Below, piece after piece: positions 6,489 through 47,312 of a DNA stretch of 64,000 bases (the first letter of the stretch is position 1; the number at the start of each line of letters is the position of its first letter). The DNA is from an uncultured delta proteobacterium. Lineage in GTDB: Bacteria > Desulfobacterota > Binatia > Binatales > Binataceae. The notes under the pieces are model-generated. The model made no database searches. It was not told the origin of the DNA and saw only the letters and a list, made by a program, of their open reading frames with translations. Position numbers and translations under genes: made by a program. The DNA lies in the NCBI GenBank assembly GCA_963830715.1, contig CAWHNS010000011.1, positions 65,243 to 129,242 on the forward strand, written 5' to 3'.

Positions 6489-6516
6489 TCCCACTCCATT
6501 GGTAAGGCCCGAAACA

Positions 6517-17185: not shown

Positions 17186-17186
17186 C

Positions 17187-18434
17187 TCACTCGACAACCT
17201 GGGCGACCGGGCTGCGCCTCCGCCCTTCCGTGGTACCGATCGGATCACCCCCCATGCCCGAGACCTCCTGGTACATCGCCAACATCCGCATGCCGACTGC
17301 CTCCCACCCGAACTGTTCACGTACTAGCCGGCGCCCACGGCTTCGCATCAGGTCGGCGAGCGACGGCTCGTCGAGCACTCGCGAGATCGAGCGCGCCGTC
17401 GCGCCGGCGTCGCAGTCGACGATGAGACCCGCACCCGCTTCCTCGATTTCCCGCCAGATATTCACCTTGTTCGACATCACGACCGGCACCCCGAGGCAGA
17501 GGCTCTCAAGGATGACCAGTCCAAAGTTCTCGGTGTATGAAGGCAATACGAAGACATCGGCGGCGGCGTAGGCCGACGACCGTTCGGCTCCGAGGAGCAT
17601 GCCCGTGAAGGTCGCCTTGTCCGCAACTCCATTCTCCACGAGCCAACTGCGTACGACGCGCGAATAGCCCTCCTCATCGGGACCCGCGATCACCAGATGG
17701 ACATTATCGCGAGTCCGGCAGACGATCGCGAACGCCTTGACCAGAATATCGAGCCCCTTTTTGAAGTTAAGGCGGCTCAAGAAAAGAATCCGCTTCTTTC
17801 CAGCGGTCTCCGGATGGCGGCGCACGAAATCCCCGGCGCTGCCGATCGGTTCGAGCTGCGCAGGATCGAAGCCCTCGGGCACCGTGACTGCATTGAAAAC
17901 CGGCTTGCCGCGCCCGCCGTGGAACAGCCCCGTAGAGGCGGCCAGATGCATCTCCTCTTCGGCGGTAAAATGCACCGCGCTCGCGCGGCGGAGCGCCGGA
18001 GCGACGAACATCCGCTCGGGAATCCGCTTCAGCGATCGGCGCACGCGGAACATGAAAGGATCGAGACTGCCGTGCGGCTTTATGACGTATGGAACACCGT
18101 AGCGCCGGCACAGGTACGCGGCCGCGACGAAATGGAACCGGTACAGTCCGTGTATGTTCACTACGTCAGCGGTGGGTATGGCCTTTCGAAGTCCCTTCAA
18201 CAGCCCGGACGAGAATCCGTAGGCGGTCTTTGACGCCGGAAACTGATGCACCTCGACGCCATCGACGGTCCCTTCCTCAGCGTCGAGCAGCGGCGAGTGT
18301 CCGCTTTCGTATGTGGTGAAAATGGATACCCGCTGACCCATCCGGACAAGTTGGCGGCTGAGTTCGAGACAGGCCACCGCCGATCCGCCATAGGCCGGAT
18401 CGATCCGGTGAATCACCTGAATTATTCGCAGCAT
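17187..18434 (-). CDS. GT4-family glycosyltransferase
   Basis: 415 aa with motif LPSYTENFGLVILESLCLGVPVVMS (E-x7-E). Confidence 0.85.
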   Translation of the reverse strand: MLRIIQVIHRIDPAYGGSAVACLELSRQLVRMGQRVSIFTTYESGHSPLLDAEEGTVDGVEVHQFPASKTAYGFSSGLLKGLRKAIPTADVVNIHGLYRFHFVAAAYLCRRYGVPYVIKPHGSLDPFMFRVRRSLKRIPERMFVAPALRRASAVHFTAEEEMHLAASTGLFHGGRGKPVFNAVTVPEGFDPAQLEPIGSAGDFVRRHPETAGKKRILFLSRLNFKKGLDILVKAFAIVCRTRDNVHLVIAGPDEEGYSRVVRSWLVENGVADKATFTGMLLGAERSSAYAAADVFVLPSYTENFGLVILESLCLGVPVVMSNKVNIWREIEEAGAGLIVDCDAGATARSISRVLDEPSLADLMRSRGRRLVREQFGWEAVGMRMLAMYQEVSGMGGDPIGTTEGRRRSPVAQVVE

Positions 18435-18455: not shown

Positions 18456-19542
18456 TCAGGATACGTGGCCCCGGTTCCGCAACCAGGCGACAGTATCCGC
18501 AACGCCCGTCTCGAGGCTGTAGGGCAGATCGCCGCAGATCTCCTCGAGCGGCGAGGAATCGTAAACCATGTCGGTGATCAGATTGTTCAGCCGGAAGGAT
18601 GTAAGAGGCGGTTCCTGCCATCCACACTTCTTGAGCAGGTCACCGGCTGCGGCCCCGATCTTGAGAACCGGATATGGGAGCGTCCTGATTGGTGCGCTAC
18701 CGAGCGCCTTCGCAATCATGTTCGCCCATTCGCTCAGCCGCAACGGCGGATAGTCGCAGACATAGATCGTCCGCCGATTGATTTGCTCGCGAGGCGCGTG
18801 CAGCAACCGATCGATCTGATAGATGGTATTGCCGACGTAGCCGAATGATTTTCGAGGATCGTGATCGCCGGGGCGAAAATATCGGCCCCGGGCAATCGAG
18901 AGGAAAAACGTGCGATAGGGAATCTCGAACCAGGGACCCCAGATCGAGCACGGCCTGAAGATGACCCACTCGCAGTCCAGGCCGGCGCCGCGCACCAGGA
19001 CTTCGCCTCGCGCCTTGCTCTCGCCGTACAGGTTCGGCGGACAGTAGTCCTCGTCGCTCGCGGGCTGGTAGGCTATCCGGCATACCATCCGCGTTGACGC
19101 AAACGCCACTCTTCGCGTCGCGGCGCATTCGCGCAGCGCCGCGACTACGTTCTCGACTCCCTTGACATTCGCTGCGTAACCGTCGAGACCGGAGGTCTCC
19201 GCATATGTCGGTTCGTGCGGCCAGATGCAGCAGATAGCCGGGCGCGAACTCGCGCAAGCTGCGCTTGATCAGATCCGCGTCGAGAATGTCGCAAGGCTGC
19301 CAGTATGGATGATGGTCCGGATTGAGGGGCGGCTTTTTGTCGAGGTTGAGTACCTCAAATCCGCGCCTGACGAAGTACTCAACCGAATTGGTGCCGATAA
19401 AGCCGGAACCGCCTGTGATGACAATCCGTTCGCGGGCACAATCGGCAGACGGCCGCGCGGCTCCGAGTTCCAAAGCGGAGGGCCCGCCGCCGATCCGCCC
19501 CGGCTCTTCAGCCCGCCCGTTCACGCGAACTTCACCCGGCAA
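18456..19542 (-). CDS. NAD-dependent epimerase/dehydratase (extended SDR), split by a frameshift
   Basis: Rossmann motif ITGGSGFIGTN and catalytic motif YGESK (YxxxK). Track ORFs 18697..19542 and 18456..19109 join via HLAARTD|YAETSGLDGYAANVKGVENV (my translation) near 19200-19215. The start codon is uncertain. Confidence 0.75.
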
Positions 19543-21127: not shown

Positions 21128-21982
21128 TCAGATCGACGTCAATGGACCGATTCCTGGTGCGCGACCGGAGGGTCTGCCGACCATATACAGACGTAGCGGC
21201 TCGAAATGATTCTCGGCGGTGAATGGCGCACGAAAGCGGTTTCCGCAGAGGTCCTGGCGCACAAAGAATGCGTTGACACCCGCGAAACAGCATCCCACCA
21301 GATTATAGCCCTTGCGCGTCCCCAGCTTTTCCAACGCTTTGAGGCTGGCTCCGTAGTACCCGTCCCCCCGCCATGCATGTGCGCTGTTGTAACTCATCGT
21401 GACTGACAGCGGCGGACGCCAGAGTGCGTTGTACTCTATCACCACCACTCGCGGCCGGCGTGCCGACAATGCTTCCCATATCCAGTAGTCATTGCCGTCT
21501 ATGTCGATGCTCAAAAGGTCCGGCTCGCTGAACGGGACCGATTGCTCCAGTAGATCATTCACGTTGGCGGCTGTCACCGCAGCCTGTTTTACCAGAAGCC
21601 GTTTCTCGGTTTCGATGAACAGCCGCAGGTTTTCGCGGATCTGATCCACGGATCCGGGGTCTTTCTCCATCCAGAGGCCGTTCCATCCCGCAACCAGCAA
21701 GTTGAGCGCGTTTGATTCGAGTCCATTGCCGACCCCGAACTCGACAAAGCTTCGATTACTGGCACCGATCCGCTCGAAAATCTGCTCGATTATTCCATCC
21801 TCGTCGTTCTGCGAGTAAGCGCGGTAACCGAACTTGAGCAATCGCAAATCGTCACTGTAGCGCTCAATCCGCATCGCGCGTTCCCAGTACTCCGCGCAGT
21901 TGAGATCGCGGATACGGGACAGGTCGCGGGTGGCCTCGTCCAGACGCCGCACGAATCGTCGCAGATGATTGATTCCGAACAT
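21128..21982 (-). CDS. Putative methyltransferase (FkbM-like)
   Basis: 284 aa with YSQNDEDGIIEQIF...FVEFGVGNG...LLSIDIDGNDYW, a pattern I associate with FkbM-type MTases in glycan loci. The family assignment is tentative. Confidence 0.5.
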   Translation of the reverse strand: MFGINHLRRFVRRLDEATRDLSRIRDLNCAEYWERAMRIERYSDDLRLLKFGYRAYSQNDEDGIIEQIFERIGASNRSFVEFGVGNGLESNALNLLVAGWNGLWMEKDPGSVDQIRENLRLFIETEKRLLVKQAAVTAANVNDLLEQSVPFSEPDLLSIDIDGNDYWIWEALSARRPRVVVIEYNALWRPPLSVTMSYNSAHAWRGDGYYGASLKALEKLGTRKGYNLVGCCFAGVNAFFVRQDLCGNRFRAPFTAENHFEPLRLYMVGRPSGRAPGIGPLTSI

Positions 21983-22023: not shown

Positions 22024-22833
22024 ATGGACCAAGGCCCTGAAGCTTGCCATACTTCGGGCGCGATGGCGGCCAAAGAAGCGGAGCGGTCCGGGTCGATGGC
22101 GCCGGCGGATTATCGCGAACGGATCTACCGGAGCTTCGTGAGCGTGGGACGCCTGGAGTCTCCGGTATCGGTGCTGGATTTCGAGCCGCTGCGCCCATAT
22201 CTCACGCGGCTTATCCGCCGTCACTTCCCGGCAGACAGGCAGGCCTCGATCCTCGAACTTGGATGCGGCCATGGAGCCTTGATTTACTTTGCAACCCAGG
22301 CCGGATACCAAAACATGGAAGGCATTGATACGTCGCCGGAGCAGGTTGCTTGCGCCGCAAGGCTCGGGATTGCGGGCGTTCGCCTGGGTGACGCGATGCA
22401 AACGCTTGCCGCTGCGCCCGACGGTTCCAGGGACGTAATCGTCTGCTACGACCTGATAGAGCATCTGGTCAAACCCGAGTTGATCGATTTTGCCGACAGC
22501 GCCCACCGGGTGCTCAGGCGAGGCGGAACATTGATACTGCACACCGTGAACGCAGAGTCACCCTTCGGCTCGCGAATCCGGTACGGGGACTTCACCCACG
22601 AATTGGCGTTCACGCGCCAATCGATCGGCCAGCTTCTGCTCTCAGCGGGCTTCCGCGACGTGCGCTGCTTCGAGCACGATCCGGTGGTCCACGGAATCAA
22701 GAGTGCCGTGCGCTGGACTCTATGGAAGGCGATACGTTGCGGGCTGCTGCTCTGGCTGGCGGCCGAAACCGGAGAATTGACGCGAAGCCCCATCCTGACC
22801 CAGGCGTTCCTGGCCGTCGCGACGCGGGGCTAG
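22024..22833 (+). CDS. Class I SAM-dependent methyltransferase
   Basis: Motif I ILELGCGHGALIYF and post-motif VIVCYDLIEHL. It is the only plus-strand gene inside the EPS string. The start may be a later ATG. Confidence 0.8.
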   Translation: MDQGPEACHTSGAMAAKEAERSGSMAPADYRERIYRSFVSVGRLESPVSVLDFEPLRPYLTRLIRRHFPADRQASILELGCGHGALIYFATQAGYQNMEGIDTSPEQVACAARLGIAGVRLGDAMQTLAAAPDGSRDVIVCYDLIEHLVKPELIDFADSAHRVLRRGGTLILHTVNAESPFGSRIRYGDFTHELAFTRQSIGQLLLSAGFRDVRCFEHDPVVHGIKSAVRWTLWKAIRCGLLLWLAAETGELTRSPILTQAFLAVATRG

Positions 22834-22864: not shown

Positions 22865-23920
22865 TCACGCGAAGGTCAATAGCTGCGACTCGCGATAGGG
22901 CTTGATCACCCTGTCGTTCAAGAGCAGCCCGAGTATGAAGAATCCCGGAGTAAGCAAGGCGACGATCGCGCAATCGATCAGCGTCCACGGCTGATCACGC
23001 ACTGCCGGGACGTAGGCCGGCTGAACGACTACGAAGGCGAAATCGGACTGCACCTGGGCGGTGGCTTCGGCCTGCATCTGCATCGCGATTAACTGATCGA
23101 GCTGCGCGAGCAGCAGGCTGTCCGAGGTGCTCATGGCCTGGTCTTCCATTGATTTGATTGCTGCGCTAGCGACGCTTACCGCGCGCAATCGAAGCAATTC
23201 CCTGAGGCTGTCGATGTAGAACTGCAGAACCTTGGTCGCCATTCGCGGATCGGGATCAAGGAAACTCACGTCCATGTTGCCGAGTTTGTCGTCATACGAG
23301 ACGTTGAACAGGTCGCCCATCCTGTCATACAGCTTCCATCGAGCGTACGGGTCGAAGCCCATCGCGACCTCGATGGAGCGAAAGAGGATTTTGAAACGCT
23401 CGACCACCGATGACGACGGCCGGGCCTTCCGCGGCAGGATCCGATCGGCCAGGTGCAGCCGGTCGATGACGCTCATGGTGAAGCCGTAGCTGGTGAGGAT
23501 GGCCATCTCTTCCTCGGCATCCCAGGCCGAGGAGCCTATGCCGAGCGACGATCCGATCGAGCTGGCGACACTGCTCAGTCCCGTGACACCGAGAATGCCG
23601 CCGTTGTAGGTGGGACCCTCCTGCGAAGCGGGCCGCAAAGTCGCATCGGCGCGATACCATCGGGTCATCATGAACTGGGTGAACAGGAAGCTGGCGGTCA
23701 CGGTGGCCGCCGTTGCAGCCAGCATCCATCGCCACCACGGCCGGACCAGCAACAGAAGATCGAACAAGTCGATCCCTTCGCGACGAGCTGATTCGCTCTG
23801 ATCGGAGGGCGCCCACGACCGGGTGCGCCCCCGCCGCTGACCGGTGCCGGGTTTGTCCACTTTAGGGTTTGCTCGCTCCCAGGGTGAGAGCGCGGCCGAT
23901 TCCCTCAATGCTGGGTTCAA
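22865..23920 (-). CDS. PCP/Wzz-like membrane protein, paralog 2
   Basis: 351 aa, colinear with paralog 1 (TRWYRA..RPASQEGPTY.GGILGVTGL...LLLAQLDQLIA...QSDFAFV..QPAYVP.VRDQPW). The track start overlaps the upstream gene. GTG 23860, 1 nt after the upstream TAA, is a likely true start. Confidence 0.6.
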   Translation of the reverse strand: MNPALRESAALSPWERANPKVDKPGTGQRRGRTRSWAPSDQSESARREGIDLFDLLLLVRPWWRWMLAATAATVTASFLFTQFMMTRWYRADATLRPASQEGPTYNGGILGVTGLSSVASSIGSSLGIGSSAWDAEEEMAILTSYGFTMSVIDRLHLADRILPRKARPSSSVVERFKILFRSIEVAMGFDPYARWKLYDRMGDLFNVSYDDKLGNMDVSFLDPDPRMATKVLQFYIDSLRELLRLRAVSVASAAIKSMEDQAMSTSDSLLLAQLDQLIAMQMQAEATAQVQSDFAFVVVQPAYVPAVRDQPWTLIDCAIVALLTPGFFILGLLLNDRVIKPYRESQLLTFA

Positions 23921-25634
23921 AGTCAGCCGAGATCAAGAGCATCGCGCGCACCGTGTCCGCACCCCGCACGAAGTTCATTTTGTTGACGTACTCGACCGCA
24001 CCCCGCACGTGAATTCCGAACAGGCCTCCATCCAGGCGCGCCAGAGGTTCCGGCAGCCGGAGCAGGTCCAGATAGAACCCCACGCTTCTTTCCTTATCGA
24101 TATTGATGGGATGCGGCCCGAACGACCGCGGCGAGCGCTCGGTGGCAAACAGATCGAAAGTGAGCTTGTCCTGGAACTTGAACCAGCGGCCGACGTTCAA
24201 GTCTATCTCCGAACCGTTGTTTCCTATCGGATCGCCCATGAGGCGATCCTTGTAAGTCCAGTATAGCGAGTCCGAGTGAATTGAGTAATCGGGACTAAGT
24301 ATTCGATACTCGAAGCCGGCGGTAGTCAGCCCGTCAGATGTAAGCCGGGGCACGTTGACTCCCCCCTGCCACGAAATCGCTTTGAACGGCAGTCCTCCGC
24401 CAATCAGCGGTACTTCCTTGCTCAGGTTGTCCTCGCCGAGCAGTTCCTGGTAGAAAAAAGTGTTTCTGAGCCGCGGGATGCTGAACCTGAAGAACAGTCC
24501 CCCGCGCGAGTTGGTATTGCCCGTCGCGGCAGTCTGCGTATCGAATCCGGTGGCGCGCCCGAGAAATCCCGCCACGCTATACTGATCGTTGCCTCGGCCC
24601 CCGAACATGATTGCGTGGTCGAGGCCCAATTCGACGTTGGGCAGTATCTTCCAGCCGAACACCTGCCCCGAGATCCACGGACGCGAATACTGGCGTCCGT
24701 GGTCGAGCTGTCCGAAGAAGGCTTGACCCTCGAACGGCCCAAGATATTCCAGCCAACCCGGCAGGTAGGTGGGATGGATGTTTTGCAGGCGCAACGCCGG
24801 AAACGGCTGCGCGTTGTTGCTCTGCGAAAGGTACGCCGCATGGCCGACGCCCGAGGCCATCTCCGCCTCGCCGAAAGAAAGCGCGGCGTTGCCGAGACTG
24901 GCCACCACTTCCCCTCGCAACAACCGAAAGCGACCGGTATCGGCCGGCCCGCGCGTGATCGGTCCGGCCATTGCGCCCTCGCCGTACGCCGTCAGGAACG
25001 AGTGGAAGCCGCCCCAGGCCGACCAGCGCGCGATCTCGTTGCTGCCCGGCGCGGTCGGCAAATCGTCGTTGTTGGGCAGCAGCGGTGTGGCCTCCTGCGC
25101 CTGGATCTCCTCGCCCGCGTCATGATTGATCGACGCGCGGCCCGGACCGCGGGAGTAAACGTACTGAGCTTCCAGCCGTTCGATCGGATGGAGCATCGTC
25201 GGAAGGTTGTCCTCCTGGTTATGCTCCAGCCATCCGACTTCTTCCCTAAGCTGGAGGCGCAACGATTTTATCAACTGGCGCGCCATCGGACCGAAGGTGT
25301 CGAGCGAGCTGGCCTCGCTTTCGCTGCGGTCCAGCAACCGTTCGGCTTCGAGCGTGAGCCGCGCCGCCTCGATCCGGCTGATGGGCTTGATCTCGCTCAC
25401 GTGCTTCTCGATTATGCCGAACTCCTCGAGCGTATCGAGTTCGGTATAGATGGGGCTGTCGAGAGGGATATAAACGACGTAGGTGGATGCGCTGACGGGA
25501 ATCGCAAGCCACAGACAGAAGCCCATCAAGCCGGCGGCGAGGCCAGCCGATCGAATCCCCCCTGCTGTGGCCAGCCCGACGTGATTGCGCGCGCCCGCGC
25601 CATCGCGCGGGCCGATATCAGGCCGCGACACCAT
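23862..25634 (-). CDS. wzi: Wzi-like capsule-assembly outer-membrane protein, paralog 1
   Basis: 590 aa with a signal peptide ending AIPVSA|S. N-terminal YVVYIPLDSPIYTELDTLEEFGII...IKPISRIEAARL motif of the Caps_assemb_Wzi family, followed by a beta-rich remainder. Confidence 0.7.
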   Translation of the reverse strand: MVSRPDIGPRDGAGARNHVGLATAGGIRSAGLAAGLMGFCLWLAIPVSASTYVVYIPLDSPIYTELDTLEEFGIIEKHVSEIKPISRIEAARLTLEAERLLDRSESEASSLDTFGPMARQLIKSLRLQLREEVGWLEHNQEDNLPTMLHPIERLEAQYVYSRGPGRASINHDAGEEIQAQEATPLLPNNDDLPTAPGSNEIARWSAWGGFHSFLTAYGEGAMAGPITRGPADTGRFRLLRGEVVASLGNAALSFGEAEMASGVGHAAYLSQSNNAQPFPALRLQNIHPTYLPGWLEYLGPFEGQAFFGQLDHGRQYSRPWISGQVFGWKILPNVELGLDHAIMFGGRGNDQYSVAGFLGRATGFDTQTAATGNTNSRGGLFFRFSIPRLRNTFFYQELLGEDNLSKEVPLIGGGLPFKAISWQGGVNVPRLTSDGLTTAGFEYRILSPDYSIHSDSLYWTYKDRLMGDPIGNNGSEIDLNVGRWFKFQDKLTFDLFATERSPRSFGPHPINIDKERSVGFYLDLLRLPEPLARLDGGLFGIHVRGAVEYVNKMNFVRGADTVRAMLLISADFEPSIEGIGRALTLGASKP

Positions 25635-25646
25635 CCATGCGCTCGG

Positions 25647-28600
25647 CTAGAGCTTGGTCCCGAGCAACGCGATAACGGCCAGCGCCTGTGCGCTGTTCGC
25701 GAATATCGAACTCACATCGACTGCGTACTGCAGGTTGATGTACGACTGGATGTCCTGCGGCACGTAGACCGTGTCGCCCGGTTCGAGCGCCGCATCCATC
25801 AGACCGCCGGTAACTACCGACATGAAGGGGAAAGTATGAGACTCGCTCAATCCCTGGCTGGTCACCACGGCGCCATCGGCCTTGATAATCATAACGTGCT
25901 TCTTGTCGGAGAACGGCGTGTAGCCGCCGGCCCGGTCCAGGTAATCCTGAACAGTCAGGGCGTTTTGCGCGATGATCGAAGTCGGCTGGTAAACCTCGCC
26001 AAGCACGTTGACCGACGAGGGCATCTTGGGAACCGCGATGTAATCCTGATCCTGCACCAGCAGGTCGTCTGAGGACCCGGTGAGCACATCGAGCGCCTTC
26101 TTGGGCGACGACGACATGTGAACCACTACCCGGCCGACCGCCTGCTGGTTTTGGAACTGGCCCAGCATGGTCTCCAGCCCGGCGAGCGCGGCCGAACTAT
26201 CCGAAGCTCCGCCGGAAGTGGAGGTGGAGCCCTTCGCCACCAACGGACTGATCAGTGCGAACTGGGCGATACTCTGCGAGAGTTGCGCCGTGGCGGTGTT
26301 GAGCTGCTGCTGCTCCAACAGCTTGGTGGTGGCGCGCGTGAACACGATTCCGCGCGGGAATGCATCTGCGCGGAACCCTCCGCATTCGTGCAGGAGCGCG
26401 CTCAGGCGCTCGCCCTCGCTGATTACGTAAAGGCCGGGGCGCATCACCTCGCCCCCGACGCTGACGACCCACGGCAGATGCCAGTTGCTCGCGACTGCCA
26501 CGAATACCTGGTCGTTCCTCTGCAGAATCGGGTCATCCTCGCGGCTTCCGCTCAATGCTTTCTGGAGGTTGACATCGATGTAGTAGTAGCGGGCGTGCGC
26601 GCCGTTCGACGACTTCTGTGCGTATCAGCCGAATCTTCTCCCGGTACGCGTCGTCCTTGAGACCGCCCGCCATGTAGATCAGGTCGCTGACCCGGGTGTC
26701 CAGATTGAGCGGATACTGCCCTGGCTGGCGAATCTCGCCCTGGATCTGGACCGTCGCCAGGTCGCGCAGGTTGTCTTCGTTGAAGATGTCGAGTTCGTCC
26801 TTGTCGTACAGCAGAGCGTCATCCGGTCCGCCCGGATGGTTCAGTGCGGCCTCGAGATCCACCGAGATGTTGCGCTGGCGCAGCGAAGGCTCTTGCAGTC
26901 TCTTGATCAGCGCGTACCCGAAGAAGGTATGGTAGTTGACGCCCTCGCCGAGCTGGACCAGATCCGAGACCCGTAGCCCGTGGCGCCACTGGAATTCGCC
27001 CGGACGACGCACGTTGCCCGTCAACTCGACCACGGCGCGGTGCTCGGGCAGGACGTGATAAACGCGCAACAGGTCCCCGTCGTGAATCAGGACGTGTTTC
27101 GAGTCGAGCTGCGACATGGCTACGTCAACCGCCACCATGCGGCGATGGTTATCGACTCTCAGAATTTGCGCGCGCTCGGTGTTGCTGAACGGGCCGACCC
27201 CGCCGGCAAGTTTCAGCGCTTGCCGAACAGTGCCCGTGGTTCCCGGCAGCTCGTAGATGGCGGGGCGGTTCACGTCGCCCACGACGCCCACCACTGATCC
27301 GACCACCGGGACGAAAATCACGTCGTTGTTCTCGACCCGAACGTCTCCGGCGTCATCACCCCGCATCAGCATGTCGTAAAAGTCGATTACCTGGATGATC
27401 TGGTTGTTGCGGCGCAGTTGCACCCTGCGCAAGCTTCCGATCTTCTGCGGCCCGCCTGCCGCGACCAGCGCCGCCGACACTCTGGACAAGCCGCTTACGG
27501 TGTACGTTCCGGGCTGGTTTACCGCGCCGATCACGTAGAGCTGCACTGTCCTCAGCTGCCCCATCGTGACCTGAATCATCGTGCCTTTGATCAGGCTGAC
27601 GCGCTCATCGATGAGCTTCTTGGCCGTGGCGAAGGTCAAGCCGCCGATCTGCAGAGGTTCGACGTTGGGAATCTCTATCTGGCCATTGCGATCGACCTGG
27701 AGAGTCAAGGTCTGATTGATGCGCCCCCAGAAGTAGAGAATTAACTGGTCGCCGGGTCCGATGACGTAGTCATCTCCCACCGGCACGTTGCCGACCGGCG
27801 CGAAGGTCGAGACCGCGGTCAGGAACACCGAATCAGCCGAACTGGCCCAGCGGCTGATTAATCGGACTCGGCGTGGTCGGCGTCATCCCGAGATCGACCT
27901 GGTTGAATCCTTGCTCGATCGGGCTTGGCTGCTGGCTGGCCATGTATCCCGGAGACATCTGTCCCGGCTGCGATTGAGCGCCCGGCTGCGAGACGCCCGG
28001 CTGCGGCGGCAGGCTCGTTTGCATCGAGGGTTGCATCCCCTGGGGGATCTGCGGCGTTATTCCCTGCGCGCACGAGAAGGCCTGTGCAAGAAGCTGCGGG
28101 TTACTTACCCCGGCCGCTTGCGCCATGGCTTGAATCTGTCCCTGGCTGATCCCGCTGGCGGCCAGACGCGCACACAGTTTCTGGACCTGATCCTGAGACA
28201 CGACGCCGGTCGAAATCTGGCCGAGCAAATTCTGCGCGTCTTCGGGCGAGACTCCAAGCTGCCCAAGGAAGGTGCTGATCAGCTGCGGGCTGAGCTGACT
28301 CAGCGCACCCGCTATGCCTCCGAGCGGCAACCCGCCCGGCGCAAGGGCAGTGGCCGCGCTCTGCGATCCGTTCTGCGATCCCATCGGACCAAGCGGCATC
28401 GCCGTTCCCGGCGCGAGCGGGACCATCGGCGTAGCGCCCATCATTCCGGGCGCCATCGGCGCAGCGCCCATCATTCCGGGCGACTGGTACTGATACGGAC
28501 TGGTCATCGATCCGGGAGCACTTGGGTAGCTTGGATAACCAGGATTGGCCGGGTAGGGCGAGTAGCCGGAGGGAGGCTGCGAGGTTGGGTATCCGGGCGC

Positions 28601-28984
28601 GCCGGGCGCCATCGATGGCGGCGCGGAATAAGCGGGATTCGGTGGCATCGATCCGGGTGCGCCTTGCGTTTGGTACATCCCGGGCTGCGAGGGCGGGGCT
28701 CCGTAGGCGCCCTGCGGCGGCGCCCCGTTAGGCGAAGCGCCATAGCTGGATGGCGGAGTACCGTAGTTATATTGCTGGTTCGGAGGGAACTGAGACTGGA
28801 CGGGAGATCCGTACGGCTGAGTGGGATAGCCGAATTGCCCACCGTTGAGCGTCGTGCTGCTGCCGTTGACGAGCTGCGCGCGCGCGGTTTCGCATACGCA
28901 AAGCAGCGCGCAGATCGCGATCGCACACGGCAGAGCGCCGGACACTGATATCGAACCCGGGAAAACCAACTTTGAGAACTTCAT
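25647..28984 (-). CDS. wza: Giant Wza-like polysaccharide export protein (signal peptide, uncharged low-complexity region, Q-rich region, Poly_export plus multiple SLBB-like units), split by two frameshifts
   Basis: Three colinear track ORFs: 27833..29287, 26533..27828 and 25647..26555. Start ATG 28984 (GGAG SD; MKFSKLVF...CETARA). Junction 1 is PLGQFG|DSVFLTAVSTF at 27833-27836. Motif DYVIGPGDQLILYFWG. Junction 2 lies near 26600-26628 (...REKIRLI / KSSNGAHARYYYIDVNLQ). Confidence 0.8.
28424..28483 (-). repeat. Tandem 30-bp coding repeat (2 copies, 2 mismatches) inside the exporter low-complexity region
   Basis: 28424-28453 and 28454-28483 (catcggcg[t/c]agcgcccatcattccgggcg[c/a]) encode PGMMGAAPMA / PGMMGATPMV. 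Confidence 0.9.
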
Positions 28985-29353
28985 GCCTGTCTCCGCCCCT
29001 ATTTGTCTCAGCCCCTGTGGGGATCTTGAATCGCTCGAGCCGAATCGATCTCTACGACGGGAATCTTCGTTCCGGGCCTTTTCGATGCGACCGGCAGGAT
29101 GAGCAAAGCATCGCCCGCGTCCGCCGTTCTGTGAACAGGCCTCCGGGTCGCAGATTCCTGCCTCCGCCGCTGGATCGTTACGGCTGCATGACAGCTTCGC
29201 CGCGAAATCAAAAGCGTTTCGCGGCAGCCTGAAAACATCGCAGGAATGTCCATTGAAATCAAGGTCGAAGATTTCTGCCTCCGTCACCGATCATTGCCGC
29301 TGCCTGAGCGACTTCCCGGCGCGGTGGGGACTTGCGCTCGCGCGCCCGCTCGA

Positions 29354-29362
29354 TGGTATAGT
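29354..29362 (+). promoter_or_regulatory. Extended -10-like element (TGgTATAGT) upstream of wzi paralog 2
   Basis: tggtatagt at 29354-29362 sits 12 nt before ATG 29375, implying a very short or absent leader. The only -35-like element I see (ttgcgc) is about 19 nt upstream. Confidence 0.3.
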
Positions 29363-29374
29363 CGCCTGCAAATA

Positions 29375-31050
29375 ATGGGGTTCGCGCGCAAAGTCCTGCT
29401 GCTGGCGGCGCTCGGAGCATGGTGGTGCATCGCTTCGGCGGCGCCGGCGGGCGCCTCGACCTACGTCGTATACATCCCGCTCGATAGCCCGATATACGAC
29501 GAACTCGATACGCTGAATGGCCTGGGTTTGCTCGACAGCTATCTGTCCGAGATCAAGCCGATTAGCCGAATCGAGGCGGCTCGGCTGACTATCGAGGCCG
29601 CCGGAAACTTGCCCTCATCGGAAAAGAACAACGCGCTCGCCCGATCGGTACTCGACGCGCTGCGTTCCGAATTGAGAGAAGAGATCGGGTGGCTCGACAA
29701 CAACGCTGAAGATGGACAACCGACCATGGTTCATCCGCTGCAGCGCGTCGAAGCCCAGTACATCTTTTCGCGCGGCGAGCAGCGCTTCTGGGACACCGGC
29801 GGTACCGGAGGCCTTCACGCGCAAGAAGGCACACCGCTACTGCCGAACAACGACGGGATCCCGACCGGGGCGGGAAGCAACGAGGTGCTGCGAGCGAGCG
29901 GGTGGGGCGGCTTGGCGGGATTCCTGACCACATATGGAGAGGCCGCGGTCACCGGCCCGGTCACGCATTCGCTTTCCAATGCGGAGAGGCTCCGGCTCCT
30001 GGGCGGCGAAGCGGTCGTCAGCGCGGGCAACTTCGCGCTCTCCTTCGGGCAGGAGGAAATGGCCTGGGGGACCGGTCATTTCGCCAGCCTGTCGCAGGGA
30101 AATAACGCAGCCCCGTTTCCTGCGCTGAGGGCCCAGAACATCCATCCGACCCTGCTGCCCGGCATCCTTCGCTACCTGGGTCAATTCCGTTACCAGATTT
30201 TCTTTGGGCAACTCGACAGCGATCGGTATTTCGCTCATCCGTGGATCGACGGCCAGATCTTCAGTTTCAAACCGCTGCCGACTTTCGAATTCGGCCTTAC
30301 TCACACAATTGATTTCGGCGGCCGCCACAATGATTTCTATTCTCCGCTTGGCTTTCTGGGACGCGCCACCGCCTTTTCGACCGGATCGGTTTCCGCAGGC
30401 AATACGCACCAGCGTGGCGGCGTATATCTGAGATTCTTCATCCCCAGCCTTAGAAATGTTCAGGTGTACCAGGAGATCGTCGGGAACGACAATCTGACTG
30501 CCGAAGTTAGCCCGGTCGGCCGATTCCTCCCGTTCCTTTCTGTTTCCTACCAGGGCGGCTTCTATCTTCCGCGACTGACCGCAGATGGCCGCACCGATCT
30601 GCGCTTCGAATATGCCTTGCTCGAACCGAACGACCAGCAGCATAGCGACTCGTTGTATTGGACGTACAACGGCTGGCTGATGGGCGACGGGCTCGGCCCA
30701 ATTCCACAGAGGTCAACGTGCAGATCGGCCGATGGTTTCGCGGCCTCACCAAGGCCAGTGTCGATGTCTTTTACACCGAACGCGCGCCCAAGTTTGATAC
30801 CAACACCCAATATCCAGCCGCAACCTACGGCGGCGCGCTCACCAAGGAGCGCAGCGGAGGGGTGGCTTTCGACCTTCTGCGCCTCCCGCAGAGTACTCAA
30901 TGGATTAGCAATATATTACTCGATGGCCGCGCTCGAATTGCATTTGAGTACGTCGATCACCTGAACTACGGCGGGCCCGGCGAATTTCGGGCCCTGGTGA
31001 TGCTCTCGACCAGCCTGACCCCGACCTGGTCGAGTCTCGCGTGGCGCTAG
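29375..31050 (+). CDS. wzi: Wzi-like capsule-assembly outer-membrane protein, paralog 2, split by a 1-nt frameshift
   Basis: Start ATG 29375 (MGFARKVLLLAALGAWWCIASAAPAGA|S). YVVYIPLDSPIYDELDTLNGLGLL motif. Track ORFs 29246..30964 and 30658..31050 join at LMGDGLGP|NSTEVNVQIGRWF at a C3 run (30697-30699), matching paralog 1 (LMGDPIGNNGSEIDLNVGRWF). Confidence 0.7.
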
Positions 31051-31925: not shown

Positions 31926-33272
31926 GTGGTTCGCTTGTGCCTCCGAGCGGCGGAGCAATTGAGTTTTCTGTTCTTGTCGCCGCGAAGGAGCCGAGGAGGG
32001 AAGTGTGCCTTGTACCGGGCGATAACATTGACGTTGCTTACGATTTGGCTGACTTCGAGAGGGGCTGCGTGGGCGGCGGACGAACCGGTGTTGACGGTAG
32101 AGCAGTTGGTGGAGGCCGCCATTGAGGTGAATCCTCAAGTCCGAGCCGCGAAGGAGCAGTGGGACGCCGCCCAACATCAGATCTTGCAGAACTACGCACC
32201 GGCGGACCCGACATTCACCTACTCGAATCTGGACAGCAGCAAAGACTTCGACGCGGCCGTGCACGCCCATTCATTCAGCGAAAGTTTCCAGTTTCCCGGA
32301 AAAGCGCTGCTCCAGGCGGAGGAAGCGAAGCGGACCGCCGGGATTGCGGCTCTAACCTATGACGCGGCGATGCGCGATCTGCGCGCCGCCGTCGAGGCCG
32401 CCTATTACCAGCTACTGCTCGACGAGGCCTTGATCGGAATCAACGCCGAGAATATCGCCAACCTGAAGCAGGTCCTTCACGTAACCCAAATCCGCTATAC
32501 GGCGAACCAGGCTACTCAAGCCGATCTCATCGGCGCCGAGTTCGCTCTCGCTCAGGCTCAGTTGCAGCAGCGTCAGTACCAGACCAACCGGGCGAACGAC
32601 CGGGTGGCGCTGAATCAACTGCTCTATCGGAGACCTGCCTCTCCGTTGAACCTTGACCGGAAGATCCAGCTCAGAGGGTTGGAGTTCCCGCTGGATAAAG
32701 CGGTAGACACCGCGACGCGCGCGCGCCAGGAGATCCTCGAGGCGGCGCTGGCGGAGAAGAATTCAACCACCGCGCTGAAACTCGCGGAGATGGAATATCT
32801 GCCGGACTATACGATCGGATATGAGTTCGACTACATCCTGCAACCCGGCGCGCAGCCGCTTGCAGGGGTGACCCAGGGGCATAGCTTCTCTATTGGGTTC
32901 AACCTCCCGATATTTTTCTGGATACATCAGCGCGAGGACGTGCACTCGGCGCAACATTCGCTGCTGGCCGCCCGTTTCAACATGAATTCCGTCCGAAGCC
33001 AGACCGAAGCAACCGTCACGCAGTTGTACCAGTCCGCCCAATTCGCCTACCAGTCGGCGCAGGAATATAGCGGATTGCTGATCCCATTGGCCGACAAAGA
33101 CTTCAAAGTGTCGTTGGTCGCCTACGAAGCGGGCAAAGTCGACTTCCTTACATTGTCGTCGGCGCTGCAGAGCGCCTATGCGGCGCGGATCACTTACCTT
33201 CAGAACGCCAATCAATTCTTCGCCGGAGAAGTGGCGTTGGAGCAGGCGATGGGAGTTTCGTCACCAAAATGA
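31926..33272 (+). CDS. TolC/CzcC-family outer-membrane efflux protein
   Basis: 448-aa track ORF with the two-repeat OEP architecture (LTVEQLVEAAIEVNPQVRAAKEQWDAA...). The likely true start is TTG 32010, after a GAGGAGG SD, which gives signal peptide YRAITLTLLTIWLTSRGAAWA|A. Confidence 0.8.
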   Translation: MVRLCLRAAEQLSFLFLSPRRSRGGKCALYRAITLTLLTIWLTSRGAAWAADEPVLTVEQLVEAAIEVNPQVRAAKEQWDAAQHQILQNYAPADPTFTYSNLDSSKDFDAAVHAHSFSESFQFPGKALLQAEEAKRTAGIAALTYDAAMRDLRAAVEAAYYQLLLDEALIGINAENIANLKQVLHVTQIRYTANQATQADLIGAEFALAQAQLQQRQYQTNRANDRVALNQLLYRRPASPLNLDRKIQLRGLEFPLDKAVDTATRARQEILEAALAEKNSTTALKLAEMEYLPDYTIGYEFDYILQPGAQPLAGVTQGHSFSIGFNLPIFFWIHQREDVHSAQHSLLAARFNMNSVRSQTEATVTQLYQSAQFAYQSAQEYSGLLIPLADKDFKVSLVAYEAGKVDFLTLSSALQSAYAARITYLQNANQFFAGEVALEQAMGVSSPK

Positions 33273-34441
33273 AGCACATTACCGCGGCTGCGATGGCTGC
33301 AACGGCCTTATCGGCTCTGGTCACGACGTGGCTGGCGATGGGCGCGCTCAGCGGATGTGACAGCTCGGCAAGTCCGGCCGCTACCGGGTCCCCGCCATCT
33401 CAACTGCCGATGTTGGTTCATCAGGCCGACGGCCGCGAATTGATGGTGATCGACATTTCTCAGACCCGGGTAGGGTCGATCGGCACCGTAAAAGACGTAC
33501 CGCTTCCCGGCGTTCTGGAAGCGGTCGGGCAGGTGACGTTCGACGATCGCCTGGTATCGACCATCATCTCGCGGGTCACCGGGCGGATTGAGCAACTGCG
33601 AACCTCGCAATGGGATACGGTTCGGCGCGGCGATCAGGTGATGTCGCTGTACAGCCCCGACTTCATGACCGCAGAGGCGGAGTACCTGGAGGCGACTTCC
33701 AGCACCAGCCAGCGCGGCGGCGCCGGCCCGCAGACCAACGCCTTTGGCATGCCGGCGGGCAGCTTCAGCATGACGGCGAACCTCAAGACCGCCGCCGTCC
33801 GCAAGCTTGAGCTACTGGGCTTTTCACCAGCGGACATCGCGGCGATCCGGGAGCCGAGCGCTTCGGTCTGGATGCGTGCGCCGATCAGCGGGATCGTCGT
33901 GAGCAAGAACGCGGTGCGCGGCCAGCAGGTCAATCCCGGCGACCAGCTTTTGTCTCTCGCGACGCTGGAACGGGTATGGATCACCGCGGACATTTACGAA
34001 GACGACCTCGCCCGAGTCAGGGTCGGACAGAATCTTGAGGCGGTGACCGCCGCCTATCCGAAGGAAATCTTCAAGGGCATGATTCAGCGAATCAGTCCCA
34101 GCCTCGATCCGAACACGCACACCCTGCAGTTGCGCTGTCAGGTCAGCAACCCCGGATCTCGGCTTAAGCCACAGATGTTGGCACGTGTTCGCATCGAGAC
34201 CAGCCCGGGTCTGGCGCTGGTGGTTCCGCAGTCAGCGCTGGTTTTCGACGACAACGCCTACTACGCGTTCATCGTAGCCGGCGCGAACAGCGTTGAGCGC
34301 CGCCGAGTCGAGATCACCGATTGGAACGAACACGGATACGCCCGAGTCGTGAGCGGCCTCGAGCCAGGCGACAGATTCCTCATCACGGACTCGCTACGAT
34401 TCAACGCTCTCTGGCATGTGGCGCACGGCGAGACTTCCTGA
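33269..34441 (+). CDS. Efflux RND periplasmic adaptor (CzcB/HlyD family) lipoprotein
   Basis: 390 aa with lipobox GALSGC. Barrel-sandwich/hairpin pattern (APISGIVVSKNAVRGQQVNPGDQLLSLA). Its start overlaps the upstream stop. Confidence 0.85.
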   Translation: MKHITAAAMAATALSALVTTWLAMGALSGCDSSASPAATGSPPSQLPMLVHQADGRELMVIDISQTRVGSIGTVKDVPLPGVLEAVGQVTFDDRLVSTIISRVTGRIEQLRTSQWDTVRRGDQVMSLYSPDFMTAEAEYLEATSSTSQRGGAGPQTNAFGMPAGSFSMTANLKTAAVRKLELLGFSPADIAAIREPSASVWMRAPISGIVVSKNAVRGQQVNPGDQLLSLATLERVWITADIYEDDLARVRVGQNLEAVTAAYPKEIFKGMIQRISPSLDPNTHTLQLRCQVSNPGSRLKPQMLARVRIETSPGLALVVPQSALVFDDNAYYAFIVAGANSVERRRVEITDWNEHGYARVVSGLEPGDRFLITDSLRFNALWHVAHGETS

Positions 34442-34451
34442 GAGAAGTGCG

Positions 34452-37400
34452 ATGATCAAACTCCTGATGAACCTCGCGCTCGGTGAGCGCATAGTGGTTG
34501 TTGGCGCGGCCGTTTTGCTCGCAATCGCGGGATTTTATTCCTTTCGCGAACTGGACATCGAGGCCTACCCCGACCCGGTGCAACCTCGGGTCGAGATCAT
34601 CACGCAACCACTCGGGCTGAGCGCGGAGGAAGTCGAGAAGATCGCCACCATACCGCTTGAAGTCGGCCTGGCCGGAATACGCAATCTGGAGGCGATGCGG
34701 ACGATATCGCTGTTCGGACTATCCGACGTGAAACTGTATTTCACCTGGGACAGCGACTACTACTGGGACCGCGTCGAGACCATCAATCGGCTGGGCCTGG
34801 TTACTCTGCCGCAGAACCTTGTGCCCTCGATATCACCTGACAATCCGATCGGTGAGATTTACCGTTATATCGTACAAAGCCCGGACCATAACCTGCTCGA
34901 GGAAAAGGAGGTCGAAGACTGGGTCCTCGAAAAACAACTCAAGACAGTGCCGGGAGTCGAAGACGTGTCGGGCTTCGGCGGCTTGACCAAGCAGTACCAC
35001 GTGGATGTAGATGCCGCGAAGCTCAATCACTACCAGTTGTCGCTGGCGGCGCTGACCGGTGCGATCGCGAACGGCAACATCAATGTCGGCGGCAACTACG
35101 TCGAGGTTGGCCAGCAGGCATTCGATGTCCGCGGGATCGGCTTTATCACGACCCTGGACGACATACGCAACATCGTGCTCGGCGCGAGCAAGGCCACCCT
35201 CAACAGCGGTATCGCCATACCGGCGCGCGTGCGCGATGTCGCCGATGTTAACGTCGGCTATGCGCCGCGGCTTGGGATCGTGGGAAGGAACGACCGCGAT
35301 GAGGTCGTCGAGGGCATCGTCCTGATGCGCAAATACGGCGATACGCTGAAGACGCTCAAAAGGGTGGAAGCGAAAGTGCAACAGCTGAACGCATCCGGCA
35401 TGATGCCGCCGGGCTATAAGGCAGTGCCTTACTACGACCGCACCTCGTTGGTCGATACCACGCTACGCACGGTCTTGGAGAACCTCGGGCTCGGCATGCT
35501 CCTGGTCTTTCTCGTCCTGATCTTTTTCCTCGGCAGCCTGCGAACCGCTGTTATCGCCGCCCTGAATATCCCACTGGCCATGTGCGGAGCATTTGTCCTG
35601 CTGTATCTGACTGGAATACCCGCGAATCTGCTTTCATTGGGTGCGGTCGACTTCGGGATCATCATCGATTCCACCGTCATTGTCATCGAAAACATTTATC
35701 GCCATCTCACCACCGACGAACGGGCCGGCGAGACTGAAGTTCAATGCATTCAACGAGCGTCCCTGGAAGTGGGCGGGCCGATGTTCTATTCGACCCTGAT
35801 TTTTCTGATCGCCTTCCTGCCGCTGTTCACGATGCGCGGGGTCGAAGGCGTCATTTTCTCTCCCATGTCGCACACCTACGCATTCGCGCTGACTACCGCG
35901 ATTCTGCTGGCGGTCACCCTAACGCCGGTTCTGAGTTCTTTTCTGCTTCGCAGGGGGATGAAGGAGACCCACAATATAGTCTGGGAGGGGTTTCATCGCT
36001 TCTATCACAACCTCTTCATCAGAATTTTACGATGGCCTTATCTGACTCTGGCGGTAATCATCCTCGTCATGGCGGGTGGACTCTCGCAGTTTCCGCGGCT
36101 GGGCGGGGAGTTCCTGCCGAAGTTGGAGGAGGGAAACATCTGGGCGAGAGCGACGCTGCCGCTCAGCACTTCACTCTCTCACGCAAACGAAGTGGCGCGG
36201 GGCGCCCGTGAGGTCTTCAGGTCGTTCCCCGAAGTTACCGACGTCGTCTCACAGACCGGTCGTCCCGACGATGGGACCGACGCGACCGGGTTCTTCAATA
36301 TCGAATTTTCCGTCGATCTCAAGCCGCAATCTCAGTGGCGGCCAGGCCTCACCAAGCAGAAGCTGACCGACGAGATCGATGACCGGCTCAGGCGTAAATT
36401 TCCCGAGGCCAGCTTCGGCTATTCGCAATATATCGAGGACAACATCGAGGAGGCGCTGTCGGGCGTTAAAGGTGTCAACGCGATCAAGGTCTATGGCCCT
36501 GACCTCGCTCTTGACGAGCGCGTTGCCAACGAGACGAGAGAAGTCATCGACGGAGTGCGCGGGATTGCTGACGTTGCGGTCTATCGCGCGATGGGGCAGC
36601 CAAACCTGCTCATCAAGCCGGACCGGCAAGTCTGCTCACGTTATGGACTCAACGTGGGCGACGTGGCCGCTTCCGTGCAAGCCGCGATCGGTGGTCAGGC
36701 GGTCACACAGGTGCTGGAGGGAGACCGGCGGTTCGACCTCGTGGTTCGTTGGCAGCCCAAATACAGGCAGAGCTCCGAGGCCATACGTCAGATTCAAATC
36801 GCCGTGCCCGGCGGCGGCTACGTCCCGCTCGGCCAGGTCGCGGACATTACTACCGCCGAGGGCGCCTCGTTCATTTATCGGGAGGGTCTGCGCCGCTACG
36901 TCCCGATAAGATTCAGCGTCCGGGGCCGCGACATGCAGAGCGCCATCGACGAGGCAAAGAGCGCAGTCGCCCGGCAGATCAGGCTTCCCGACGGCGTCTC
37001 GCTCGACTGGGTGGGCGAGTACAGCGAGCTCCAGCAAGCCAACCGGCGCCTGGAGATCGTTATTCCATTCGCGCTGCTGGTAATCATGGGTGTTCTTTAC
37101 GCCGCGACCTTGTCGTTCATCAATACGCTCATATTGATGGCGCAGGTGCCGCTGGCTTGCCTGGGTGGCGTGCTCGCGCTGGTTGTCACCGGCACGCCCT
37201 TCAGCGTCTCCGCCGCGGTCGGCTTCATCTCGATTTTCGCAATTGCAATCATGGACGGCATTCTATTGAACTTTTACATCTATCAACTGTGGAAGGAGGG
37301 ACACTCCGTCGTCGATTCAATCGTCATGGGCGCCGACCGGCGCTTCCGCGCTCTGATGATGACGGCGTTGGTCGACGGACTGGGACTCCTGCCCGCCGCA

Positions 37401-37580
37401 CTTTCCACCCGTATCGGAGCGCAGACTCAGCGGCCACTGGCGATCGTGGTTATCGGCGGAGCCATTTCAATCGCGTTGTTGACCCGTGTGTTCCAGCCCA
37501 CGCTGGTCTATCTGCTGCGACGGCCTCTCGGTCTCATCGATGACCGCGAAGCGGCTCAACTAAACACCCACCCGCGATGA
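34452..37580 (+). CDS. Heavy-metal-efflux (HME) RND permease, CzcA/CusA family
   Basis: 1042 aa from ATG 34452. 12-TM RND topology. The TM4 motif AVDFGIIIDSTVIVIENI is typical of HME-RND pumps. The gene is intact. Confidence 0.9.
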   Translation: MIKLLMNLALGERIVVVGAAVLLAIAGFYSFRELDIEAYPDPVQPRVEIITQPLGLSAEEVEKIATIPLEVGLAGIRNLEAMRTISLFGLSDVKLYFTWDSDYYWDRVETINRLGLVTLPQNLVPSISPDNPIGEIYRYIVQSPDHNLLEEKEVEDWVLEKQLKTVPGVEDVSGFGGLTKQYHVDVDAAKLNHYQLSLAALTGAIANGNINVGGNYVEVGQQAFDVRGIGFITTLDDIRNIVLGASKATLNSGIAIPARVRDVADVNVGYAPRLGIVGRNDRDEVVEGIVLMRKYGDTLKTLKRVEAKVQQLNASGMMPPGYKAVPYYDRTSLVDTTLRTVLENLGLGMLLVFLVLIFFLGSLRTAVIAALNIPLAMCGAFVLLYLTGIPANLLSLGAVDFGIIIDSTVIVIENIYRHLTTDERAGETEVQCIQRASLEVGGPMFYSTLIFLIAFLPLFTMRGVEGVIFSPMSHTYAFALTTAILLAVTLTPVLSSFLLRRGMKETHNIVWEGFHRFYHNLFIRILRWPYLTLAVIILVMAGGLSQFPRLGGEFLPKLEEGNIWARATLPLSTSLSHANEVARGAREVFRSFPEVTDVVSQTGRPDDGTDATGFFNIEFSVDLKPQSQWRPGLTKQKLTDEIDDRLRRKFPEASFGYSQYIEDNIEEALSGVKGVNAIKVYGPDLALDERVANETREVIDGVRGIADVAVYRAMGQPNLLIKPDRQVCSRYGLNVGDVAASVQAAIGGQAVTQVLEGDRRFDLVVRWQPKYRQSSEAIRQIQIAVPGGGYVPLGQVADITTAEGASFIYREGLRRYVPIRFSVRGRDMQSAIDEAKSAVARQIRLPDGVSLDWVGEYSELQQANRRLEIVIPFALLVIMGVLYAATLSFINTLILMAQVPLACLGGVLALVVTGTPFSVSAAVGFISIFAIAIMDGILLNFYIYQLWKEGHSVVDSIVMGADRRFRALMMTALVDGLGLLPAALSTRIGAQTQRPLAIVVIGGAISIALLTRVFQPTLVYLLRRPLGLIDDREAAQLNTHPR

Positions 37581-46986: not shown

Positions 46987-46996
46987 AGCAAGCCTC

Positions 46997-47275: not shown

Positions 47276-47279
47276 CCTG

Positions 47280-47312
47280 ACATTGTACCGAATACCGGGA
47301 TGCGGTCAATGT
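47280..47312 (-). promoter_or_regulatory. Near-consensus sigma70-type promoter (TTGACC-N16-TACAAT) for higBA, overlapped by a 6-bp inverted repeat
   Basis: The minus strand reads aTTGACCgcatcccggtattcggTACAATgtcaggGTG. The -35 is at 47304-47309 and the -10 at 47282-47287, with the GTG start 6 nt after the -10. The ACATTG/CAATGT arms are at 47307-47312 and 47280-47285. Confidence 0.45.

Follow-up and report, generated by a model that had tools for sequence, protein, structure and literature searches.

The question raised by this locus is whether three colinear open reading frames (ORFs) on the minus strand of a contig from an uncultured delta proteobacterium of the Binataceae (CAWHNS010000011.1) represent one gene for a very long polysaccharide exporter and, if so, what the long charge-free segment near the N-terminus of its product is for. 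The analysis covers a 64-kb stretch of that contig (hereafter, the window). The reading that we favor, with somewhat more confidence than doubt, is that one gene encodes a long Wza-like protein for outer-membrane polysaccharide export (OPX) that is not lipidated; its N-terminal extension would combine an uncharged, flexible brush with a docking module, placed where the channel opens into the periplasm. Coordinates follow window numbering, and residue numbers refer to the joined product of 1111 aa. The gene and its two frame breaks are located as follows:

25647..28984, minus strand: the whole OPX gene, defined by ORFs, junction translation, Pfam and homolog alignment, with one base removed per junction
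27833..27838, minus strand: junction 1 (J1), GGC TGA, where the surplus base is C 27836 or T 27835 and the conserved QFG-x-x-x-F motif is disrupted
26600..26613, minus strand: junction 2 (J2), GTCGTCGAACGGCG, where the surplus base lies somewhere within TEVV(E/N/D)G

The three ORFs span 27833-29287 (with the ATG at 28984, preceded by GGAG ~8 nt upstream), 26533-27828 and 25647-26555. Translation in all frames shows that both junctions require a +1 shift, which is to say one surplus DNA base each. At J1 the sequence is TTCGGC[T]GATTCG (~27835-27836), and the corrected reading is QFG/DSVF (the slash marks the junction); at J2 it is GTCGTCGAA[C]GGCGCG (~26602-26607), read after correction as TEVVE/GAHARYYYIDV. 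Dropping one base at each of the two junctions and re-translating yields the 1111-aa product without internal stops. The first-pass annotation of this DNA had proposed that the three pieces form one OPX gene, and the homologs bear this out: the 15 closest that were aligned (41-49% identical), which include proteins of short-read JGI assemblies, are gap-free across both junctions, and their QFG-x-x-x-F...VSTFAP and RTEVxNG...Y motifs match the corrected reading exactly. In the resulting 16-sequence alignment the window residues agree with the invariant columns through the core, and both downstream pieces carry a strong coding signal (GC content at third codon positions, GC3, of 0.78-0.82).

Some observations pull the other way. 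The two upstream ORF pieces stand as separate singleton proteins in the protein collection, both from a single NCBI/ENA contig of 138,276 bp, and the third piece is absent from it. The best homolog of the window OPX is 56% identical; the exact DNA pattern across J1 had no match in metagenome contigs, and scanning such contigs at the protein level turned up no relative either. GTDB representative genomes gave no match above 50% identity, and look-ups of the exact products of four window proteins returned no record.

What, then, are the two frame breaks? They are most likely 1-bp insertion errors of assembly, because at least five further genes in the window are also split between frames:

5093-6701, minus strand: split phosphoesterase (PF04185 positions 1-185 in ORF 5526-6701, positions 227-356 in ORF 5093-5818)
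6517-9351, minus strand: split Wzx-type flippase (pieces 6517-9351 and 7740-8732)
15726-17323, minus strand: split WbaP-like sugar transferase (CoA_binding_3 in 16490-17323, Bac_transf in 15726-16979)
18456-19542, minus strand: split NAD-dependent epimerase, with the N-terminal third missing
57766-59117, plus strand: split MFS transporter (pieces 57766-58758 and 58656-59117)

By frame arithmetic, shifts of both the insertion type and the deletion type occur among these, at a density of about one frame-split per 8 kb. The assembly thus appears to be prone to indels in this window, and other split ORFs found here are not to be taken as biological. Were both insertions in the OPX gene genuine, the exporter would be dead and a secreted 383-aa fragment comprising the N-terminal tail and module would be the sole possible product. 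Such a pseudogene is improbable in our judgment: although the insertions lie outside long homopolymers, are both contained in a deposited assembly that annotates the two upstream pieces as separate proteins, and were contradicted by no independent copy in the scans and look-ups just described, the split genes nearby suggest assembly error rather than targeted decay. Moreover, high GC3 in both downstream pieces and the invariant core columns are retained, and no other lesions or in-frame stops were seen in the gene. Programmed +1 frameshifting of the prfB type was considered and rejected. At J1, GGC UGA U would need the Gly tRNA to re-pair on GCU, and a Shine-Dalgarno-like element is absent upstream; at J2, there is no stop at the shift site, and the homologs are unshifted.

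Read as one gene, the locus encodes a generic long Wza-like OPX protein, with these core features:

27565..27783, minus strand, residues 401-473: Poly_export (PES, PF02563), Pfam score 49.3 bits (gathering threshold 28), E 5.5e-13
25758..27549, minus strand, residues ~479-1075: SLBB beta-grasp array, five Pfam matches (170 bits for PF10531, 121 bits for PF22461)
25653..25751, minus strand, residues 1078-1110: candidate outer-membrane-spanning, Wza_C-like helix of 33 residues (AF2 pLDDT, the predicted local distance difference test, 50-60; conserved in the clade)

A profile of the family matches Wza (2J58) in the PDB at 3.6e-18. The AF2 model, built from a 65-sequence alignment, has pLDDT above 90 over most of residues 400-1075, and a Foldseek search with it recovered Wza structures 2W8H, 2J58 and 9R64 at E 3e-15 to 1e-14, as well as Myxococcus WzaB and GfcC. 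The Wza-like core noted earlier is thus confirmed, as are the several SLBB-like units, of which Pfam places five stretches after Poly_export. We also observed that the AF2 model inserts a helical hairpin of ~60 residues into the SLBB array (residues 884-944, 26151-26333, minus strand), and that this hairpin holds a second low-charge loop, rich in Ser, Thr and Gly, at residues ~915-930.

Class 1 OPX proteins are defined by the order Poly_export-SLBB(1-14)-Wza_C, the Wza_C criterion being an HHpred match to residues 326-359 of 2J58 (Saidi et al. 2022, PMC9603273). The literature treats Poly_export as the N-terminal OPX domain, and 78% of class 1 members are lipoproteins. The median class 1 length in the survey is 378 aa, in agreement with the ~380 aa stated earlier for classical Wza lipoproteins, which were said to lack a region such as that described here. 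The window protein resembles class 1, and E. coli Wza (2J58), in having Poly_export followed by SLBB, the Wza fold and a predicted C-terminal helix at the Wza_C position, and its gene too belongs to a cluster of the Wzx/Wzy type and has a co-polymerase gene close by. The C-terminal helix gave no Pfam Wza_C match and no PDB sequence match to Wza D4. Membership of the core in class 1 is probable. The protein differs from class 1 in being three times longer than the median, in not being a lipoprotein, and in placing ~365 residues between its signal peptide and Poly_export.

More specific assignments were tried and rejected. The top-scoring named NCBIfam models over the Poly_export-SLBB part are EpsE (TIGR03028), at 152.7 bits against a cut-off of 262.65, and the XrtA-PEP-CTERM exopolysaccharide export protein (TIGR03027), at 105.6 bits against 180. 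Besides leaving the window protein far under their cut-offs, these exporters differ from it in being models of ~170-240 aa with no N-terminal extension. Wza sensu stricto, a lipoprotein of ~380 aa (PRK15078), scores 58 bits against a cut-off of 333, and its lipobox Cys is absent here.

The extension begins with these elements:

28880..28984, minus strand, residues 1-35: predicted signal peptide (MKFSKLVF...CETARA, cleavage before Q), of the signal-peptidase-I type (AxA), from hydropathy, AF2 and homologs
28292..28879, minus strand, residues 36-231: disordered tail without K, R, D or E, from composition, coding frame and AF2 (pLDDT 28-35)
28423..28482, minus strand: 30-bp tandem duplication within the tail (PGMMGAAPMA / PGMMGATPMV), from repeat detection

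Hydropathy peaks over residues 12-30, where AF2 places a helix at 18-30, and is followed by A-R-A/Q (here the slash is the cleavage site). A lipoprotein anchor was considered and rejected, since a canonical lipobox is missing: at none of the signal peptide's four Cys residues does G, A or S occupy position -1, and the orthologs share the AxA/Q pattern without a lipobox Cys. Mature protein would therefore begin with the tail. It had been suggested that this segment could act as a periplasmic or surface tether, a phase-separating or adhesive module or a peptidoglycan-spanning linker. It is, however, a free N-terminus after a signal-peptidase-I-type site and does not lie between folded or anchored parts, so that the tether and linker readings suit it poorly.

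The absence of charge is as striking as first described, and extends somewhat farther. About 190 charge-free residues had been reported after the signal peptide; the longest run free of D, E, K and R covers residues 36-247 (212 aa, 28244-28879). Its composition is P43, G33, S26, A24, Q19, Y15, L12, M12, T11, N8, V4, F3 and I2, which is exactly the residue set listed from the original hand scan, with H, C and W likewise absent. At the D/E/K/R frequency of the core (19.3%), the chance of such a 212-aa run is ~1.7e-20. The frame is the coding one: it has GC3 of 0.73 and no stops (the other two frames have 6 and 2) and is unbroken with the signal peptide upstream and a conserved module downstream. 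Within the tail, P accounts for 21%, G for 16%, Q for 9% and Y for 8%, with Tyr in GY, PGY and YGAP contexts. Tyr, Met, Gln and Asn, which are not residues of GC-rich codons, together make up about a quarter of it in this 62% GC genome. The predicted disorder held up (AF2 pLDDT below 50 over residues 31-231), and repeat detection recovered the reported duplication with 2.0 copies and 96% matches. With 21% Pro, it is less likely to be a prion or amyloid domain of the classical kind.

The tail also contains 24 Ser and 11 Thr, and low-complexity regions rich in Ala, Ser and Pro, of similar composition, carry O-glycans in Neisseria and Burkholderia. It is conceivable, if very improbable, that this Ser/Thr/Ala/Pro-rich segment is a substrate for periplasmic O-glycosylation or Tyr cross-linking and becomes functional once modified; no sequon was found in it, and no search for an oligosaccharyltransferase gene was made.

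Between the tail and Poly_export, the first-pass annotation had described one Q-rich helical region of about 150 aa. The AF2 model retains a helical part, of ~80 aa, and divides the remainder into a disordered linker and a short helix:

28061..28291, minus strand, residues ~224/232-308: conserved five-helix module, from alignment, hidden Markov model (HMM) and AF2 (pLDDT 70-80)
27929..28060, minus strand, residues 309-352: second disordered linker (linker 2), Q/P-rich and charge-free (AF2 pLDDT below 50 at 310-350)
27887..27928, minus strand, residues 353-366 (AF2 helix 355-366): short conserved helix SPIEQGFNQVDL, from alignment and AF2

The module is built of repeated helix starts of the form h-S-x-x-Q-h-x-x-h. 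Its HMM is found in 76 of 76 sequences of the Binataceae clade and in none of the distant OPX proteins. An exhaustive search of 1.84 billion representative proteins with the module profile gave 68 matches; of 10 mid-length ones that were checked, eight carry a downstream Poly_export domain, and the other two are the first ORF piece of the window itself and an N-terminal fragment with a tail of the same kind. A word-indexed database of 5.8 billion proteins yielded two short OPX fragments, a search that was probably limited by the word filter. Among matches whose domains were checked, then, the module is confined to this OPX clade or its fragments. Against Pfam it gave sub-threshold noise only, and a separate AF2 model of the module (five helices, pLDDT 76) had no structural neighbor in the PDB by Foldseek (best E 5). 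The short helix bears a clade-wide SPIEQGF motif, in which S354 and E357 are invariant in the 16-sequence alignment. Linker 2 contains a tandem repeat of 15-17 bp in 2.6 copies (27963-28005). In one ortholog (P0126, residues ~440-500), linker 2 is expanded into regular repeats (PPNGMMPNGMPPNGM...), so both disordered segments appear prone to slippage.

Is the tail peculiar to this one protein? We refer to relatives as L (loci) or P (proteins of the homolog sets) and measure the tail from the cleavage site to the module in the 62 orthologs with a recognizable signal peptide. A scan of GTDB representative genomes gave 80 loci, the closest 59 of which are nearly all from metagenome-assembled genomes labeled Binataceae, Binatus, Binatia or "uncultured delta proteobacterium"; those farther removed belong to Planctomycetota and other phyla. 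In the relatives, the low-complexity region is fused to the OPX core in a single ORF, as linkage to OPX would require. Tail length ranges from 3 to 306 aa (median ~100), with a median K/R content of 1.6%. The earlier view that there is no described equivalent therefore stands as regards the literature, where we found none, but the tail is no one-off: it is a long case of a hypervariable, clade-wide tail. Only P0008/L055 (232 aa) and L001 (221 aa, with a start codon that may be over-extended) have a charge-free run longer than the 212 aa of the window.

Two kinds of tail can be distinguished. About a dozen of the 62 orthologs have the charge-free P/G/A/S/Y type with Tyr in GY, PGY and YGAP contexts (for example, the window protein, L001, L002, L023, L057, P0001, P0002, P0006, P0008, P0009 and P0011); from the representative library, P0123, P0124, P0126, P0129, P0133, P0144, P0153, P0163 and P0166 are also of this type. 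A second type, found in one subclade, is acidic, rich in N, D, S and G, and has a conserved Cys pair. Several orthologs are almost tail-less (3-30 aa). The Tyr contexts recur in separate branches, and the PGY and GYG repeats of L001, P0008 and P0166 are more regular than those of the window. Charge-free runs of at least 60 aa before Poly_export also occur in several distant OPX proteins without the module (P0021, P0042, P0045, P0062, P0064, P0076 and P0115).

Several side observations on these tails can be recorded here. In some orthologs (P0008/L055, L057, P0126, L009, L014, L030 and P0006), small conserved islands with a Cys pair hold the only charged residues of the tail, with, for example, the pattern SWRAAACARDPRNC(T/S) in the PGY type and C-x-DP-x-DP-x-x-ADSGLPPC in the acidic type; P0006 has a repeated FTCPNN...W(V)CPNT unit, and the window tail has no such islands. 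One distant OPX protein of 1164 aa, P0049, has a P/G/Q/Y-rich insert (GQYGQPAPGQYGAP...) at residues ~520-640, between SLBB domains rather than at the N-terminus, so insertions of similar composition occur elsewhere in long OPX proteins.

Comparison of close orthologs shows how the tail changes. When P0008 is aligned with P0126, identity is 87% in the core (2 gap columns) and 82% in the module (no gap columns), whereas in the tail it is 46%, with 117 gap columns. The tail evolves through insertions and deletions. This bears on the main rival to a brush, according to which the tail has no function and simply arises through replication slippage, being tolerated at a free N-terminus, with a composition set by mutation bias and the purging of residues that hinder export. 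The 3-306 aa range, evolution mostly by indels, the tandem duplications in the window tail and linker 2, and the GC-rich codons that favor G, A and P are all as expected of such a by-product. We nevertheless regard neutrality as unlikely. K and R are excluded across hundreds of residues in every ortholog, beyond any effect near a signal peptide, and GC bias does not yield enrichment in Tyr, Met, Gln and Asn. Separate branches repeatedly show Tyr in Gly/Pro contexts, and so do distant module-less OPX proteins (for example, P0076 and the internal insert of P0049). Furthermore, in 740 kb of DNA flanking Binataceae OPX genes, runs of at least 80 aa free of D, E, K and R are restricted to the OPX gene, with a single exception, a gene for a small secreted protein adjoining a short-tailed OPX. 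The exception (L031, 4977-5636, minus strand) encodes a secreted protein of 219 aa, divergent to an OPX gene with a 38-aa tail, and consists of a Cys-rich domain followed by a C-terminal charge-free tail rich in P, G, Y and Q (...PPGYYPPPGYYYSQPY). There a similar low-complexity segment is provided by a separate neighboring protein; this is a single case.

Composition is also the starting point for a reading with a more active role. Uncharged aromatic low-complexity domains are familiar in eukaryotes, for example in FG-nucleoporins, resilin (YGAP), high-molecular-weight glutenin (GYYPTSPQQ) and spider silk (GPGGY). The window tail is like these in its near-zero charge, in having Tyr or Phe amid Gly, Pro, Gln and Ser, in its predicted disorder and in its repetitive origin. 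It is not homologous to them, however, belongs to a periplasmic protein of a bacterium, and has far less regular repeats. By this analogy, the mouth of the channel could be ringed by tails in a gel-like or elastic collar, which would seal or gate the junction with an inner-membrane partner or stack Tyr against the polymer. An OPX ring would raise the local tail concentration, and the more regular repeats of L001, P0008 and P0166, together with zero charge, 8% Tyr in its GY, PGY and YGAP contexts, 21% Pro and 16% Gly, would suit a cohesive mesh. We consider this an improbable alternative, however: the resemblance is one of composition, and many orthologs work with almost no tail or with acidic ones.

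Our preferred reading remains the brush plus docking module. The extension presents, in order before the Poly_export ring, a free and charge-free tail that is predicted to be disordered, the five-helix module, the Q/P-rich linker and the short helix. OPX proteins form rings (Wza is an octamer, as in PDB 2J58), and the Poly_export ring of Wza is the one farthest from the outer membrane. If the window protein assembles likewise, several copies of the extension would surround the mouth of the channel on its periplasmic side, toward the inner membrane. The module is the part constrained in sequence and is likely to dock to a partner; the obvious candidate is the adjacent Wzz-like or Wzi-like protein. 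The tail, in contrast, appears to be under selection for composition rather than sequence. Without basic residues it would avoid sticking to anionic polymer, lipid or peptidoglycan, its high Pro and Gly content would hold it extended and might confer resistance to proteases, and its Tyr residues in Gly/Pro contexts could provide weak cohesive or sugar-stacking contacts. The result would be a flexible, uncharged brush whose length drifts through replication slippage.

Several points weigh against this proposal. The brush and docking roles are ones that we infer. Given the acidic subclade, the conserved property is K/R depletion only, not strict freedom from charge. Several orthologs have hardly any tail, so that it is dispensable for the channel itself, and a segment with a free N-terminus is no linker as that term is normally understood. 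At the other end of the protein, the outer-membrane-spanning role of the terminal helix is a prediction.

The nearest known periplasmic analogs are the disordered or Pro-rich low-complexity envelope segments of LpoA/LpoB, TonB, TolA and the linkers of outer-membrane lipoproteins. They are periplasmic, disordered and of low complexity, as the window tail is predicted to be. They differ in being anchored by lipid or a transmembrane segment, joined to a folded domain and often charged (e.g., the EP/KP repeats of TonB), whereas the window tail is free and uncharged.

The genes around the OPX gene include the candidate partners:

23862..25634, minus strand: gene for a Wzi-like barrel of the outer membrane, 12 nt past the OPX stop, its position kept in relatives
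22865..23920, minus strand: Wzz-like co-polymerase gene, next in the OPX - Wzi-like - Wzz-like order
13418-14284, minus strand: sulfotransferase (Sulfotransfer_1/3), inside the exopolysaccharide cluster
9405-11828, 21128-21982 and 22024-22833: several methyltransferases of the same cluster

The OPX - Wzi-like - Wzz-like order is kept in ~45 related loci (among L002-L059). The window cluster is of the Wzx/Wzy type, with a flippase, GT4 glycosyltransferases, a WbaP-like transferase, methyltransferases, a sulfotransferase, two Wzz-like genes and two Wzi-like genes. The presence of the sulfotransferase and methyltransferases suggests that the polymer may be sulfated or methylated. The second Wzi-like paralog (29246-30964, plus strand) lies upstream of the OPX gene and is divergently transcribed. 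In one related locus (L005), the OPX-linked Wzi-like gene is 75% identical to this upstream paralog, compared with 53% to the downstream copy. Just past the upstream Wzi-like gene is a complete RND efflux operon (31926-37580, plus strand; outer-membrane factor, HlyD-type adaptor and AcrB-type pump). Farther away is a toxin-antitoxin pair (46690-47305, minus strand), with a HigB-like toxin at 47000-47305 and a helix-turn-helix (HigA-like) antitoxin at 46690-47106.

How much of this is new? The OPX core and multi-SLBB forms with up to 14 SLBB domains were already known; the clade-wide, K/R-poor tail and the helical module on an OPX protein are new here. The OPX survey does not use the word "disordered" and describes no N-terminal extension (PMC9603273). 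We found no disordered or low-complexity N-terminal OPX region elsewhere in the literature, including a paper on OPX helical membrane segments, and nothing relevant on exopolysaccharides of Binatia.

It is tempting to go further and suppose that the ring of tails and modules forms a cohesive collar resembling FG-nucleoporins or elastomers, and that this collar seals or gates the junction between the outer-membrane exporter and its inner-membrane partner, or couples the two elastically, with tail length tuned to envelope geometry. This is speculative, and we think it improbable; if true, the collar would be a previously unrecognized periplasmic element of long OPX channels. Apart from that, the tail offers a clean natural example of a disordered region in the bacterial periplasm where selection appears to act on composition rather than on sequence. 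The extension as a whole bears on how non-lipidated, very long OPX members may be positioned and coupled to the inner membrane, and it hints that, in this widespread and uncultured lineage of soil bacteria, the export machine that spans the envelope includes a part yet to be studied.

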